Numbered from the stretch's first letter, positions 13,178-20,000 are shown. The stretch is DNA of 20,000 bases from an uncultured virus (IMG/VR IMGVR_UViG_3300025446_000005) (IMGVR_UViG_3300025446_000005); one strand, 5' to 3'. Translations and numbers: made by a program. Notes: generated by a model from the sequence alone, not told the origin.

Positions 13178-16100
13178 TTATGCTTTATCCAGCTTTTCCA
13201 GCTCCTCTTTCAGCACGGCACGGTCCCGCTCGACCTGCGACCACCCCTTCCGGTAGGTCTCGTCCATCGAGGCCCCCTTGGTGAAATGGTGGTGGGTCAG
13301 CCTGGCGGATTCGTCCCTGAACGCCTCCCCGAGCCTCGACGCCTTGGCCCAGAGGAGGTTGTCGCACCCCACGTGGTGGAATCTCTCGGAAAAGACCTCC
13401 CCGAGCCTGTCGAACAGGTCCTTGCGGATGAGAAAGTGCTCACAGGCGTTTCCCCCGTCCGGGAGCAGGGGGCCCGTGTTGACCGCCACGAGCCCGTGCT
13501 CCCTTGACGACAGCGCCGCCCGGTAGAGACACCACGGGTCGGAGAACTCCACGTCGTCGGCGGCGAAGAAGAAGGCGGCGGCCTCGGCGGCCCTGCACAT
13601 CCGGTTGACCTTCACGGGCACGGTGTCGGTGGTGCCGTCCACCAGGATCGTGACGAGGTGCTTCGGGTAGTACAGCCCATCTATCGAGTCCACGCACCGC
13701 CTCAACCCCTCCGGCCTTCCCAGGGCGGGGATGACGAAGGCGACGCGGGGCAGGTAGTCCTTCTTGCTGTAGTGGGCGGCGTCGACCCACGACTTCATGC
13801 AGTGGTGGAAGAGCCTCGTGTTGGGGGTGACGTTGATGGTGCCAGTCCGGTGGTTGTAGGGCGTGAAGTACTCCGGGGGATAGACCGCCACGCCCGGATG
13901 CCCGCTCCCGCCCTCCTTTACCAGGGGGGTGAAGACCTCCGTCGCGGCCGCGAAGGGGAAGTCCTCGTCCCCCTTGAATTTGCTCTCCATGAGCCTCATC
14001 TGCTCCCGGATCAAAGGATGGTTCGGGATCGAGCCGATGGGGGAGTTCCCGACCCATCCGTCCTCCCCCGTGCCCACGAAGAGCGAATGGCCCAGCATGT
14101 CGTCGAAGCTCCTGCCGGGAAGGACCTCCTCGTCCAGGTCGCAGTAGATTCCCCCGCGTTCCGCCAGCTCGTGGAGCCGCCAGTAGTCCGAGACGTTGAC
14201 CCATTTTTTAGCAGCCACACCGGCGTCCATGTAGGGGATTCCCCTGGGCAGGTCCTTGAGGGTGAGGACCTGGTGCTCGTACCCCCCCATCGCCCTCTGC
14301 GTGGCCAGGCACTTCCCCATGGCGGGCGGGATGCCCCCGTCCTCGGACAGCCATATGTTGAAGATCCTCCTGGGTATGGGGGCCCTGCCCAGGCTGGCGG
14401 ACCCGGGCTCCTTGACCCACGACTTCAGGAAATGGTGGAAGGTAATGCTATGGCTGGTGACGTTGGTCCTGCCGGTCTGGTGGTTGTAGGGGTAGAAGAC
14501 CTCCGGAATGCACACGAGGATGCCCTCGTCCTTGCTGGCGGCGGCCAGGATGCGGGGGGTGATGATCTCCAGGGAGGACTCGAAGTTCTTGTCGTCGTCC
14601 CCCCTGAACTTGGCTACGACCTCCTCCAGGTGCGCTTTGAGGAGCGGATGCCCCGGCTCCGCCCCCATGACGGCGGTGGACACGAAGCCGTTCTCCTCCC
14701 GCCCAGCGAACAGCGAGCGGCGGAGCAGCCCGCGGAAATCCTTGCCGGGGAGGATCTCCACGTCGGCGTCGCAGTATATGCCGCCCCGCTCGATCAGCTC
14801 GTGTATGCGGACGTAGTCGCACGCCTTGACCCATTTCTTGGCCCCGATGGCGGCGTCCAGGTAGGGGATGCCCTTCGGGCAGTCGCCCAGTCCGATGACG
14901 TGGTGCTCGTATCCCTCGACCGCCCTCTGGCTGGCGATGCACTTCCTCACGAGGTCCGGCATGCTTCCGTCCTCGGAGAGCCAGACGGTGAAGATGCGCC
15001 TGGGAATCCTGTCGGGCGGCTCGGACCTCGTCTCCTTGAACCAGATGCTCTCGCACTTTTCCGTCCCCGGGACACACTCGTCCACCGCCTCGCAGACGCC
15101 CATCCAGGTGCCGGGGAGGTAGTCGTGCCCCGACAGGACGACATCGGCCATGTCCCGCCACAGCCCGATGTCCTCCTTGACCTCCTCCTTGGTGTGCCCG
15201 GCGTCGATGAACACCATGCCGAACCTGCGCCCCTCGACGGCGCACTTGGCGGCGGCCTCGCGGCTCGTCATGCGCAGGACTTCGAGGTTCTTGAAGTGCC
15301 CGACGTTCTTCGTGAACGTGGCGAAGATGTCCTCCGCCTTCGCCATGGCGTTGGTCTGGTCCCTCGGGTCCACGGAGCCCTGGAAGGTGTCGACGCACGT
15401 CACCGTGCCCTTGCACCCGGACAGCAGGGCGTGGGTGCTCCTCCCCTTCCAGCTCCCCAGCTCCAGGACGCTGTCCATCCCCTTGGCCTTCTCGTAGAGC
15501 CAGTTGAGCTCGCCGATGCTCATCCACCCCTCGATGCCCTGGTCCTTGTACTCGTAGTCCCGGGGATAGTAGAACTGCCTTTCAGCCTGGTACTTCGGGT
15601 TGGCCGGGTCGTAGGCGAACGCCTTGTCGTAGTGCTCCTTCGACCGCGCCTTGTCGCCGAGCCACCACAGCGCCCAGTACAGCTTCTCGTGCGGCTCGTA
15701 GGTGTAGTGCGCCCCGAGGTTGCAGTAGCAGTCGTTCGGGGGTATCTCCAGGGCCGCCGAGCAGTAGCAGGCGACCTTCTGCGGGTCGTTCTTCCTCCAG
15801 TAATGGTCGGCGAGGCGGAGCAGCGGCTCCCTGCGCGTCCCGTCCGCCAGGAACGCCCTGTGCCAGGAGTCGAGTGCCTTCCCCTCCTCCCCGAGCGCCA
15901 TCCATGCGTCCCCGATGAACACCAGCGACTGGCCCCTCTCCTGCGCCCACCGGTTCATAGCGACGTGGCGGGCCAGCTCCTTGATGGCGGACTTCGGCCT
16001 TCCCCTCCACAGGAGCTCGCGCCCGAGGTAGTGGGAGTTCCGGTCGTTGCCCTGGTTGAGGTAGCAGTCGAGCGCCAGCCCGGCGAGGTAGCGGTCCCTG

Positions 16101-16720
16101 TGCGGGTCGTTGTCGGGCAACTGGAAGTGCTCCAGGAGGAGGACACTCGGGGGGAGGTAGGTGCGCTCGGCCTCGCCCACCAGGACCTCGTGGACGATTC
16201 CCTGCCAGCGCATCTTCCTGCGGTCGTACATCTTGCACTGCTTGAACTGGACGGCCGGCTGGCCGTTGGGGTAGTGCGAGAAGACGAAGTGGAACTCCAT
16301 CTGCTCGTAGCCCCGCCTGACGGCCTCCTCGATGGCGTCGATGTCGCACACGGAGAATTGCTCGTCGCAGTCGGGCATCGAGACGACGTCGTTCGTGGCC
16401 AGGAAGGCGGAATGGTTCCTGGCGGCGGCATAGTTGAACAGCCTGTCCCCCTGGCGGACTATCGGGGCCTCCCCCTCCACAACGAACCGGGCATTGATCT
16501 TGTCCGCGATGCCGGGGGGCATGTCGAACATGAACTTGTCCCCCACGCAATGGACGGAGAACCCTGCGGCCCTGCCAACCTCCACGGTCCCGTCCGTGGA
16601 TCCCGTGTCCACAAGGACCACCTCGCCCCCCCGTCCCAGGAACCCCCCCAGCGAGGCGATCAGCCGCGGGAGCGTCCTCTCCGCGTTCTTCCCTATCAGG
16701 CACACGCTGAAGTTGACCAT
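13178..16720 (-). CDS. Multidomain glycosyltransferase: GT2 + TPR + class I methyltransferase + 2x GT32(DXD)-like + GT2-like
   Basis: LVDTGSTDGT and DCDE (GT2), a helical TPR-like region, VLELGSWKGRST and MVFIDAGH (Methyltransf_24-like), twice IPRRIF..W / RGGIYCDxD / HH..KSW (GT32-like), then VAFVIPALGRPEGL and AADD. Confidence 0.92.
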   Translation of the reverse strand: MVNFSVCLIGKNAERTLPRLIASLGGFLGRGGEVVLVDTGSTDGTVEVGRAAGFSVHCVGDKFMFDMPPGIADKINARFVVEGEAPIVRQGDRLFNYAAARNHSAFLATNDVVSMPDCDEQFSVCDIDAIEEAVRRGYEQMEFHFVFSHYPNGQPAVQFKQCKMYDRRKMRWQGIVHEVLVGEAERTYLPPSVLLLEHFQLPDNDPHRDRYLAGLALDCYLNQGNDRNSHYLGRELLWRGRPKSAIKELARHVAMNRWAQERGQSLVFIGDAWMALGEEGKALDSWHRAFLADGTRREPLLRLADHYWRKNDPQKVACYCSAALEIPPNDCYCNLGAHYTYEPHEKLYWALWWLGDKARSKEHYDKAFAYDPANPKYQAERQFYYPRDYEYKDQGIEGWMSIGELNWLYEKAKGMDSVLELGSWKGRSTHALLSGCKGTVTCVDTFQGSVDPRDQTNAMAKAEDIFATFTKNVGHFKNLEVLRMTSREAAAKCAVEGRRFGMVFIDAGHTKEEVKEDIGLWRDMADVVLSGHDYLPGTWMGVCEAVDECVPGTEKCESIWFKETRSEPPDRIPRRIFTVWLSEDGSMPDLVRKCIASQRAVEGYEHHVIGLGDCPKGIPYLDAAIGAKKWVKACDYVRIHELIERGGIYCDADVEILPGKDFRGLLRRSLFAGREENGFVSTAVMGAEPGHPLLKAHLEEVVAKFRGDDDKNFESSLEIITPRILAAASKDEGILVCIPEVFYPYNHQTGRTNVTSHSITFHHFLKSWVKEPGSASLGRAPIPRRIFNIWLSEDGGIPPAMGKCLATQRAMGGYEHQVLTLKDLPRGIPYMDAGVAAKKWVNVSDYWRLHELAERGGIYCDLDEEVLPGRSFDDMLGHSLFVGTGEDGWVGNSPIGSIPNHPLIREQMRLMESKFKGDEDFPFAAATEVFTPLVKEGGSGHPGVAVYPPEYFTPYNHRTGTINVTPNTRLFHHCMKSWVDAAHYSKKDYLPRVAFVIPALGRPEGLRRCVDSIDGLYYPKHLVTILVDGTTDTVPVKVNRMCRAAEAAAFFFAADDVEFSDPWCLYRAALSSREHGLVAVNTGPLLPDGGNACEHFLIRKDLFDRLGEVFSERFHHVGCDNLLWAKASRLGEAFRDESARLTHHHFTKGASMDETYRKGWSQVERDRAVLKEELEKLDKA
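13787..15009 (-). repeat. Intragenic tandem duplication of the GT32-like domain, 630-nt period
   Basis: Homologous anchors are offset by exactly 630 nt at both ends (14361 vs 14991 'aagat'; 13784 vs 14414 'gacccacgacttca'). Confidence 0.85.
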
Positions 16721-17898: not shown

Positions 17899-18669
17899 CT
17901 ACAGGCTGCAAATACCGCCGGATGGCGATCCCGGAACGTCCGCCACGACCGGGGGGTAGGCGGACAGCCTGTTCTCGTGGGGGTAGCCGAACGGGTTCGC
18001 GACGACCCTGGTCCCGCCCATCGTGCGGTCGTATGGGAGGTGGGTGTGCCCGTACACCCACAGCCTCGGCTGCTTCTCCAGGATCAGGCTCGTGAGGTCC
18101 GAGACGAAGAACCGGTTGAGGTTCTCCCTGTCGTCCCTGTAGCGCGGATGGATGGCCAGGATGGACGGGACGTGGTGGGACAGCACGACCGTGCCCTCCC
18201 GGACGAGCCTCCACGCGGCCTCCTGGAAGGCCCCGTTCTCCGTATAGACCCAGTCGGCGAACCCCCTTATCTGAGAGAAGTCGTTGAGCTTGTGCCTGTG
18301 GTACCAGTTTTCCTTGTCGAGCGGGAACCAGAGGGTGCCCCCGAAGAAACGGACGCCCTCGACGGTCTCGTCGCCGTTCCGCAGCCAGTGGAAGTTCGGG
18401 GGCATGGCCTCGGACAGGACGGCCTCCGCCTCCTCCTTGGAGCCGCCGTAGTACTCATGGTTTCCCGCGACGAACACGGCGTGCCTGGCCTTGCTGGAAA
18501 GGAAGCCCAGCACGTCCTTGATGGCTTGGGGGCTTTGTCGGCAGGGGACGACGAGGTCCCCGGGAAGGAGGAGGAAATCGAGGTTCGGCTCGAAGGGGAT
18601 GGTCTTGAGGAACCTGACCGGGTCTGGGTAGAATTCAGAATGTAAATCTGAAAGTAGCTGTGCCTTCAC
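17899..18669 (-). CDS. Calcineurin-like metallophosphoesterase
   Basis: SDLH, PGDL, AGNHEYY, SHH and YGHTH motifs in canonical order. Confidence 0.92.
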   Translation of the reverse strand: MKAQLLSDLHSEFYPDPVRFLKTIPFEPNLDFLLLPGDLVVPCRQSPQAIKDVLGFLSSKARHAVFVAGNHEYYGGSKEEAEAVLSEAMPPNFHWLRNGDETVEGVRFFGGTLWFPLDKENWYHRHKLNDFSQIRGFADWVYTENGAFQEAAWRLVREGTVVLSHHVPSILAIHPRYRDDRENLNRFFVSDLTSLILEKQPRLWVYGHTHLPYDRTMGGTRVVANPFGYPHENRLSAYPPVVADVPGSPSGGICSL

Positions 18670-18938: not shown

Positions 18939-19013
<75 letters not shown>

Positions 19014-19048
19014 TTCTATTTAAGGGCGCGGCAGTCAAGATTTGGGCC

Positions 19049-19236
19049 GGGGGCCAACGCCGGTCAGCGGCGTGGTGGACTACCAACCATCATCAACGGC
19101 GAAAACGAACCACCAACCACCGACAACCAACAGTTCCCTAACAGGCTCACGCCCGCAGTGTAACCCTGCCGACTATCTTTATCGTCGGAGGCCAGGTAAG
19201 GCTTTCCGACTAGCCGCGCTCTTCCGGGCGGCCCCC
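19049..19236 (-). ncRNA. Candidate structured non-coding RNA of unknown class
   Basis: Terminal GGGGGCC/GGCCCCC closing stem, internal hairpins (GCGGGC-GUGA-GCCUGU; CCGAC..GUCGG) and a ~55-nt G/U-rich repeat tract; no credible ORF. Confidence 0.55.
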
Positions 19237-19250
19237 GTCAACTTGGCTGC

Positions 19251-19562
19251 CTACTCCTTCTTGGCCGGCACGAGCTCGCCGAGGACGTCCTCGTTGGGCT
19301 CGTATCCCTTGATGGCCGCCACGGCGTTGGTCGCCTTGATGGCCATGTCCAGCTTCCGGCGCTCGCGGGCGATGTTGGATATGAGCCTGTCCAGGGCCAC
19401 GACGTCGTACGTCGGCTCGACCTTCTCCGGCGTGTCGCCCTTCAGTCCGCGATAGGTCGTCCGTGCGGCGGAGTTCTCGTTGCGCAGGCCCTGGAGCTCG
19501 GCGTGCCGCTCGGCCAGCGTCTTCGCCCACGTGAGCCCCTCGTTGATCGTCATCTTTGTCAT
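19251..19562 (-). CDS. Coiled-coil protein resembling the DIP1984/DUF6847 (septicolysin-like) family
   Basis: MTINEGL..AKTLAERHAEL...YDVVALDRLISNIARERRKLDMAIKATNA: two amphipathic helices ending in L..AI...N. GGAGG RBS before ATG 19562. The family is recognised from memory, not by search. Confidence 0.7.
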   Translation of the reverse strand: MTKMTINEGLTWAKTLAERHAELQGLRNENSAARTTYRGLKGDTPEKVEPTYDVVALDRLISNIARERRKLDMAIKATNAVAAIKGYEPNEDVLGELVPAKKE

Positions 19563-19581
19563 GTCCGTTTCCTCCCGAAGC

Positions 19582-19595
19582 ACAATACCGAAAAA
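19582..19595 (-). promoter_or_regulatory. Putative promoter (TTTTTCGGTATTGT)
   Basis: The identical 14-mer also occurs at 3428-3441, upstream of the HU-like gene; both copies are intergenic. Confidence 0.6.
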
Positions 19596-19598
19596 TTC

Positions 19599-19895
19599 GT
19601 GGACCGGTAAGCCGAATTCTGTCCCTCTTGCGAGGTGGCAACCATTCGTCTGGGACGGCCGTCGCCGGCCGCCTCAAGCTCGCTACCCGAGGGTGATGCG
19701 GGCCGGGCAGGCCCTCCCCTCCTATTTGCGATTGCTCCGCATGAAGCTTGCCGCGTTTCACTCCGGACCTAACCGGCTCGTCTCTGTGGCGCTGGTTGTC
19801 ACGCCTTGCGGCGTGCCGGGGCGTTACCCCGCATGCTGCCCTATGGAGTTCGGACTTTCCTCCCCCCCTCACGGGGCGGCGGTTGCCTGGTCCAC
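19599..19895 (-). ncRNA. rnpB: RNase P RNA (bacterial A-type-like, compact, ~297 nt)
   Basis: Universal P4 strands GAGGAAAGUCCGAA and ACAGAAUUCGGCUUA, P1 GUGGACC/GGUCCAC, conserved ACAGAGA, GUGAAA, GGAGCAA..CAAAUAGG, GGGUAG..GCUUGAG and AGACGAAUG. Confidence 0.96.
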
Positions 19896-19898
19896 AAG

Positions 19899-20000
19899 CT
19901 AGGCTGCCTGGAACTCCCCCTGCCTGACCCCCTCCTCGTACCACGAGGCCCAATTGGCCATCTCCCTGAGCGCGAGGTCGGGGTCCAGGTACACCCCCGC
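19899..20000 (-). CDS. C-terminal fragment of an upstream CDS (...AGVYLDPDLALREMANWASWYEEGVRQGEFQAA*)
   Basis: Open GC3-biased frame from the window edge to TAG at 19899-19901, 3 nt before rnpB. Confidence 0.6.
   Translation of the reverse strand, partial: AGVYLDPDLALREMANWASWYEEGVRQGEFQAA

Follow-up and report, generated by a model that had tools for sequence, protein, structure and literature searches.

The RNase P RNA gene and its surroundings

The window analysed here, a stretch of 20,000 nt, is the reverse strand of bases 32175-52174 of a 114,183-bp IMG/VR virus record from a peat-soil phage. Searching the whole window against Rfam 15 with cmscan returned only two matches above threshold, an RNase P RNA and a tRNA. 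The RNase P RNA match, to RF00010 (RNaseP_bact_a), lies on the minus strand at 19592-19898 (307 nt; 203.2 bits, E 7.1e-65, gathering score 100), spans model positions 1-367 and is not truncated. It was found at the same place when the whole 114-kb record was scanned (record coordinates 32277-32583). The comparison with Infernal models proposed in an earlier, sequence-only reading of the stretch thus gave RF00010 as the best match among overlapping clan members (where these overlap, cmscan retains only the best), and we annotate the gene as rnpB, encoding a bacterial type A RNase P RNA. That reading had described a clear rnpB among phage-type genes at 19599-19895, an interval that falls inside the full-length match. 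It had also placed the gene 3 nt after a CDS stop; there is indeed a stop upstream, but the match abuts it. The first rnpB base directly follows the TAG of the upstream ORF, whose end is at window position 19899, and the 3-nt gap comes from the choice of a shorter start. A promoter and terminator scan of the gene flanks found no sigma-70-like promoter and no clear terminator beside rnpB. The public sequencing runs listed with the stretch comprise 20 DNA and 0 RNA runs, and are uninformative on expression.

Two ORFs flank the gene on the same strand. The upstream one, of 144 aa, has its 3' end at 19899-20000 (-) and runs off the window (GC3 0.90, pI 5.3). The downstream one, an acidic ORF of 103 aa at 19251-19562 (-), begins with an ATG at 19562 after a GGAGG, about 30 nt past the end of rnpB (pI 6.0, on its 110-aa GTG-start form). 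Neither has a Pfam or PHROG match at E<=1e-5. The 103-aa ORF is 72% identical to its counterpart in a 317-kb relative and 67% identical to that in a second relative, G020, while no homologue of the 144-aa ORF was found beside rnpB in the relatives examined. Further downstream, 579 nt from rnpB and again on the same strand, is a tRNA-Gly(CCC) gene with an encoded 3'-CCA (ARAGORN, 18939-19013, -, record 33162-33236; Rfam tRNA, 65.3 bits at 18942-19013), followed by a metallophosphoesterase gene at 17899-18669 (-; PF00149, 8e-13; phrog_1649, 3e-42). In related phages the metallophosphoesterase marks this region of RNA genes by synteny, and tracing its relatives uncovered records that carry rnpB.

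Just beyond the window's end, upstream of rnpB, ARAGORN predictions on the whole record placed an array of 11 tRNA genes (record 29644-31429) and a tmRNA gene (31464-31821). The 11 tRNAs, the tmRNA, rnpB and tRNA-Gly(CCC) share one strand within 3.6 kb, forming an island of RNA genes. Spacers between the tRNAs are mostly 1-8 nt, and all 12 tRNA genes encode CCA. The array tRNAs are Val, Gly, Ala, Gly, Ala, Asp, Val, Ala, Glu and Cys, plus an unusually long 94-nt Ile(tat) call; the tmRNA's predicted tag is AKPLAMYAMA.

The record and its viral identity

CheckV estimates the record at 36% of a roughly 317-kb genome. We predicted 97 ORFs in it with a purpose-made, GC3-based caller and compared them with Pfam and PHROG at E<=1e-5. 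They include a portal (phrog_16240, 1.6e-20), tail fibre, tail spike, virion structural and SLT-domain virion proteins, as well as replication genes (a family A DNA polymerase, a UvsX-like recombinase, primase, clamp loader, helicases and ribonucleotide reductase). No ribosomal-protein family is among the Pfam matches of the 97 ORFs at E<=1e-5. The portal has 16 IMG/VR relatives at 54-72% identity, including genomes of 299,875 bp (direct terminal repeats, 100% complete), 316,945 bp (99%) and 455,708 bp (100%).

Were the record instead cellular DNA, a plasmid-like element or a chimera, its rnpB would be an ordinary bacterial gene. Such an origin would fit the finding that neither Pfam nor PHROG recognised a major capsid protein or terminase in the 114-kb fragment. 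The Pfam models Terminase_6N, Phage_capsid and Terminase_6C matched in 0/5 records (the fragment and four relatives), TerL_ATPase gave a single sub-threshold match in these five, in the relative G009, and a relaxed PHROG scan of 20 unknown ORFs together with two ESM Atlas look-ups returned no capsid and no terminase. As the capsid and terminase models are silent, viral identity rests on the portal, tail and virion PHROG matches, on the IMG/VR record and on the relative with terminal repeats. The earlier description of the genome as viral is therefore borne out by these proteins and this relative, but not by the terminase and capsid genes it had named as confirmation. The phage-type replication genes, the lack of ribosomal-protein families and the 299,875-bp portal relative (terminal repeats, CheckV 100%) all argue against cellular DNA, and the same gene order recurs in independent samples. 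Contigs from 4 public peat and wetland runs cover 18986-20000 plus 383 nt beyond with zero differences, joining rnpB to both flanking ORFs at the depth of the adjoining phage DNA; the sole break falls inside the tRNA-Gly gene. At these peat and wetland sites the phage attains depths of 100-480. As the 4 runs may include the source sample, these contigs are weak but consistent evidence against a chimera. Bacterial rnpB copies also fall on the other side of the tree from this one (see below). Taken with the silent capsid and terminase models, this leaves a cellular, plasmid-like or chimeric origin highly improbable. For annotation, an rnpB match is no proof that a contig is cellular.

Two large proteins of the record also deserve description. 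One ORF at record 88726-106263 encodes a 5845-aa polyvalent protein with a GNAT, two ART-PolyVal and a PARP-like domain; such polyvalent proteins are seen in huge phages and conjugative elements. An 1180-aa ORF at window 13178-16720 (-) combines glycosyltransferase family 2, Methyltransf_24 and a DXD sugar-binding glycosyltransferase region, and matches phrog_13126 (beta-1,4-glycosyltransferase).

Anatomy of the RNA

All five conserved regions, CR-I to CR-V, could be placed on the helix map of the 307-nt RNA, which has its catalytic and substrate-binding architecture intact. P1 has 9 bp, P2 has 7 bp and P3 carries a GUGA loop; P5, P7, P8 (UAAC loop), P9 (GCAA loop) and P10/11 were also placed, with GNRA loops on P9 and P18. 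The catalytic helix P4 is built from CR-I, GAGGAAAGUCCGAA, as its 5' strand (19849-19862, -, with the bulged U at window position 19854) and CR-V, ACAGAAUUCGGCUUA, as its 3' strand (19608-19622, -). In the window, P4 has GAA/UUC, a compensated variant of the usual GGG/CCC.

The specificity-domain core occupies 19755-19787 (-), placed by both cmscan and the helix map, and consists of J11/12 (ACAGAGACGAG, 19777-19787, -), a 14-nt P12 hairpin (19763-19776, -) and J12/13 (AGUGAAAC, 19755-19762, -), with the 3' strand of P11 following at 19754. The P15-P16-P17 arm lies at 19680-19731 (-) and includes L15, GGGUA (19684-19688, -), the site that pairs with the 3'-CCA of tRNA; the CCA encoded by all 12 tRNA genes matches the GGU retained in this loop. 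The GCCC of L17 can pair with GGGC of J5/7 at 19838-19841, forming the pseudoknot P6. P18 (19653-19673, -; cmscan and helix map) ends in a GCGA loop of the GNRA type, and P19, CCUCGCAAGAGG (19624-19635, -), in a GCAA loop, so the P18-like and P19-like hairpins noted earlier from the sequence are both present. P19 is an optional helix, absent from some phage copies in our alignment and with sequence at its site in two betaproteobacterial copies.

The trailer that follows the RNA, AAUUUUUCGG (window 19592-19605), resembles the spacers after the CCA of the array tRNAs, which we compared over record 29722-30500 (AGUUUCGG, UUUUCGU, AAUUUCGU and AGUUUUC). Trailer and spacers may be a shared processing signal.

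The missing P13 and P14 helices

After J11/12, model stretches of 28 and 49 positions are shrunk to 10 and 14 nt in the cmscan alignment, and the helix map leaves zero nt between J12/13 and the 3' strand of P11, meaning that P13 and P14 are absent. This confirms one half of the sequence-only reading, which had seen a short P12 and J12/13 lead directly into what is the P11 3' strand. The other half, that the loss is a special, viral compaction, does not hold, as the same S-domain is present in the rnpB of Burkholderiales and Nitrosomonas. The RF00010 matches of a Nitrosomonas MAG (248 bits), a Burkholderiaceae MAG (245 bits) and the isolate Diaphorobacter caeni (210 bits) have the 43 model positions of P13/P14 reduced to 0-3 nt (cmscan alignments shown for these three of the five bacterial loci scanned), and one peat Burkholderiaceae MAG has exactly the window's 14-nt P12 hairpin. 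A search for the S-domain pattern over 185,579 species genomes found at least 120 stretches, 119 of which match the phage rnpB profile; among the matches listed, most titles are Burkholderiales or Betaproteobacteria, and some are Omnitrophota and Planctomycetota. That beta-proteobacteria lack P13/P14 was reportedly described in comparative studies from the 1990s.

The phage RNA and betaproteobacterial rnpB belong to the same family and share J11/12, a short P12, the J12/13 GUGAAAC with the P11 3' strand directly after it, and P15-P18, with sequence at the place of P19 in some copies. They differ in setting: betaproteobacterial rnpB is a lone chromosomal gene, whereas the phage gene lies in an island of tRNA and tmRNA genes, in a genome lacking rnpA. 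E. coli M1 RNA and the Thermotoga maritima P RNA share the catalytic core (P1-P5, the bulged U of P4, P6, the GGU of P15, and P18), but have P13, P14 and a longer P12, positions that the phage RNA is without. P13/P14 has been named as a type A element (PMC1874661). Archaeal type A RNase P RNAs are also without P13/P14, but lack P18 too and need several proteins (PMC4919922); the phage RNA has kept P18 and its best match is bacterial type A, which sets it apart from the archaeal form. Many RNase P RNAs of the CPR (Patescibacteria) are likewise without P13 and P14, which PMC8172020 calls 'not unusual', and there these RNAs are also described as often lacking P16/P17 and the CCA-binding motif and falling below Rfam thresholds. 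Unlike them, the phage RNA retains P16/P17 and the CCA-binding motif and scores 203 bits.

Since Betaproteobacteria share the layout and the CPR paper treats the loss as commonplace, the compact S-domain is an ordinary, inherited lineage trait, common to Betaproteobacteria, and not a viral adaptation. Nor does the lack of P13/P14 disqualify a sequence from RF00010, as bona fide betaproteobacterial members score 210-248 bits without them. For annotation, the absence of P13/P14 is no sign of an unusual RNase P RNA. The RNA is a standard member of bacterial type A; what is new is its residence in a phage.

Conservation and covariation among phage copies

To place these features in a wider family, we aligned 22 distinct phage rnpB copies with MAFFT and derived a structure from the alignment with RNAalifold. 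This recovers P4, P5, P7, P8, P9, parts of P10-P12, P15, P16, P17 and P18, including the specificity-domain helices P7-P12 with covariation across the 22 copies. P1-P3 fall outside this family-wide score, since the 5' ends align poorly. Both sides have changed in a compensatory manner at 46 of the 56 predicted pairs. Standard pairs make up 94.3% of 1183 cells (67.2% when shuffled), and 0/500 shuffles reach the observed value, a count that is no probability as the 22 sequences are related. Sliding the partners by 1-3 columns lowers pairing to 34-39%, a control that is flattered by the structure having been derived from the same MAFFT alignment.

Within the catalytic core, all eight pairs of P4 form in 22/22 copies, with six of them covarying, and its bulged U is invariant in the 22 copies. 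The P6 pseudoknot, which we added by hand, is 94.3% paired and covaries at 4/4 pairs, as do all 8 pairs of P18. Across the 22 phage copies, the L15 GGU and the bases of J11/12 and J12/13 (the strands of CR-II and CR-III) either do not vary or show at least 90% conservation.

Four copies (L133, L096, L165 and G009) have P9 expanded by insertions of 50-100 nt, at about alignment columns 190-265. These insertions share a GGUUGGAAGCG...UUCCCAACCAA motif, and a similar stretch occurs near the 5' end of the L112 and G015 copies. The pattern resembles the insertion of a single structured module at different sites.

Distribution in viral records

RF00010 was found above cut-off in 10 of the 28 related viral records searched. 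Among the portal relatives that are at least 99% complete, 3/3 carry rnpB (G005, G009 and G011); one further complete record among the 28 is without it and is a distant phosphoesterase relative only. Scanned with the S-domain pattern, IMG/VR gave at least 119 stretches, mostly chance matches, from which rnpB was confirmed in 15 further records by cmscan and in 4 more by nhmmer alone. Homologous rnpB is thus present in no fewer than 29 viral records besides this one, with lengths of 13-463 kb. The gene mostly sits inside tRNA arrays in these relatives, with a tRNA about 0-10 nt away on one side or on both, and the complete relatives have 43, 62 and 64 tRNA matches.

The exception at the syntenic site is G020 (127,843 bp, 41% complete), which has a tRNA array, tmRNA, 103-aa ORF and phosphoesterase in the same order. 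Where the 144-aa ORF and rnpB would lie, it holds about 750 nt of unrelated sequence with small ORFs (L038:3508-4258), and no RF00010 match was found in the locus at E<=1 or in the whole record at E<=0.01. The gene is thus dispensable or movable in at least some relatives.

A different IMG/VR pattern, combining CR-I and J5/7, picked out 9 loci on contigs of 2-22 kb, which we set aside as lying outside the phage rnpB family. Five of these small contigs were scanned and scored 265-328 bits, like ordinary bacterial-type rnpB. The nine are probably cellular DNA or prophage flanks filed as viral.

A blastn search of rnpB against 50,697 GenBank phage records gave a sole match, to a Salmonella chromosome record filed there. 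Our full-text literature searches found no description of a phage-encoded RNase P RNA, and the main text of Al-Shayeb et al. 2020 does not contain the term 'RNase P'.

Phylogeny of the phage copies

In a quick tree of 16 phage and 110 bacterial rows, every phage row lies on one side of a branch with SH-aLRT support of 99%. A more careful tree of 134 rows adds six further, divergent phage copies together with the ordinary rnpB of five small IMG/VR contigs, and drops three long bacterial rows; the 107 bacterial rows that remain were chosen by motif among the matches listed. Here 15 phage rows, the window's copy among them, group together (support 100/99), apart from the 107 bacterial rows. By identity the window's copy is closest to L191 and G011 (82-83%), against 76-78% for the best sampled Burkholderiales. 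The six divergent phage copies sit on long branches elsewhere, and the 'phage' label needs at least 5 changes on the tree. It thus seems that phages acquired or replaced rnpB on more than one occasion, but the lineage of the window's gene is old enough to have diversified within phages. Phage branches are longer than bacterial ones, which could reflect relaxed constraint. The phage rnpB set would supply fast-evolving P RNA variants for structure-function work.

These data bear on whether rnpB is a neutral passenger, that is, recently acquired host DNA with no role in the phage. In its favour, the architecture equals that of betaproteobacterial rnpB, and the gene is missing from the syntenic site of one relative, G020. 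Against it, identity to the nearest sampled Burkholderiales copies (76-78%) is lower than to the nearest phage copies (82-83%); the clade holds 15 diverged phage copies, and compensatory changes preserve every core helix. We regard a neutral passenger as very unlikely.

In the careful tree the phage clade joins an Omnitrophota/Planctomycetota group, a placement that the tree program marked as long branches meeting. The bacterial rows were picked by a shared motif, among the matches listed, and we assign no donor lineage on this basis.

The rnpB of G005 stands apart. This 299,875-bp genome has a 376-nt gene (L066:1501-1876; 255 bits) with full P12, P13 and P14, which pairs with an ordinary bacterial-type copy (100/92) outside the 15-row phage clade. 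Its P4 variant, GGAAGUUCGGGG, resembles the P4 of several phage copies, and the whole suggests gene replacement or a swap of the S-domain.

The protein partner

The sequence-only reading had found no rnpA in the window, and the wider searches agree. No PF00825 (Ribonuclease_P) match was found among the 97 ORFs of the 114-kb record at E<=1e-5, and a six-frame search of the record for rnpA also found none. Across the fragment and four relatives, three of them at least 99% complete, rnpA (PF00825) was above cut-off in 0/5 records, in a search that was positive for 10 of 14 control genomes. We also considered the ORFs flanking rnpB as analogues of the basic RnpA, and rejected them: both are acidic (pI 5.3 and 6.0) and therefore unlike RnpA, neither has a family match, and conservation is limited to the downstream one. 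As the phage has no rnpA, the host would have to supply the partner. RnpA of one bacterial species can replace that of another (PMC4919922), and phage rnpB would offer a natural test of mixing P RNA and RnpA across sources.

The need for a host protein also raises the idea of a decoy, an RNA that captures host RnpA or otherwise disturbs host RNase P as a means of take-over or counter-defence, starving or redirecting host tRNA maturation. Having no rnpA of its own, the phage P RNA must compete with the host P RNA for RnpA, and the 5845-aa polyvalent protein with its ADP-ribosyltransferase domains points to extensive host manipulation. For a decoy, however, the protein-binding region alone would suffice, yet the bulged U of P4, the L15 GGU and the J11/12 and J12/13 bases that read the T-loop are invariant or close to it. 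The helices covary across the 22 copies, and a position inside tRNA arrays fits a processing enzyme. We therefore think a decoy unlikely.

Possible role in phage tRNA maturation

RNase P RNA counts as a hallmark of cells, and to our knowledge reviews list it for Bacteria, Archaea and Eukarya only. In our judgement, the gene described here probably encodes a functional RNase P RNA that is the phage's own, is inherited within a huge-phage clade (about 230-460 kb), and matures phage tRNAs and tmRNA with the help of host RnpA. We infer its catalysis, its use of host RnpA, its substrates and its benefit to the phage from the sequence and its context. Three roles had been put forward earlier for a viral copy (maturing phage tRNAs, titrating host RnpA, or replacing a host RNA destroyed by defence nucleases), and the genomic context favours the first.

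On this model of tRNA maturation, rnpB would probably be transcribed with its neighbours and then cut out of the precursor, after which the phage P RNA would probably bind host RnpA. The resulting enzyme would remove the 5' leaders of the tightly packed, CCA-encoding phage pre-tRNAs and of pre-tmRNA, adding tRNA-maturation capacity during infection. The neighbouring tRNA-Gly(CCC) is a likely substrate.

An active ribozyme might instead have its main job elsewhere, cutting phage polycistronic transcripts, tmRNA or regulatory RNAs and not the bulk of the tRNAs. In this phage rnpB is flanked by protein-coding ORFs and follows tmRNA rather than tRNAs, and its 3' trailer resembles the spacers between tRNAs. 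Known substrates of RNase P include pre-tmRNA, mRNAs and phage regulatory RNAs (PMC4919922). Set against this, rnpB lies directly between tRNAs in most relatives, where 43-64 tRNA genes are an obvious substrate load. We find it improbable that such targets are the main ones, although the two roles are not mutually exclusive.

Conservation of an intact copy across a huge-phage clade would extend the known viral set of translation-related genes by a catalytic RNA. More tentatively, huge phages could keep their own evolving lineage of RNase P ribozymes, apart from the sampled cellular ones. With about 60 tRNAs, tmRNA and a CCA-adding enzyme, this might amount to a virus-owned line of tRNA production that sustains translation while the supply or maturation of host tRNAs is shut down or attacked, perhaps with an unrecognised phage protein, or none, in place of host RnpA; we see this as possible but doubtful.

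The CCA-adding enzyme is encoded at record 107641-109023 (-) and has a PolyA_pol head, an RNA-binding domain and a tRNA_NucTran2_2 domain (phrog_2244). With CCA already encoded in all 12 tRNA genes, the presence of this enzyme points to repair of tRNA 3' ends.
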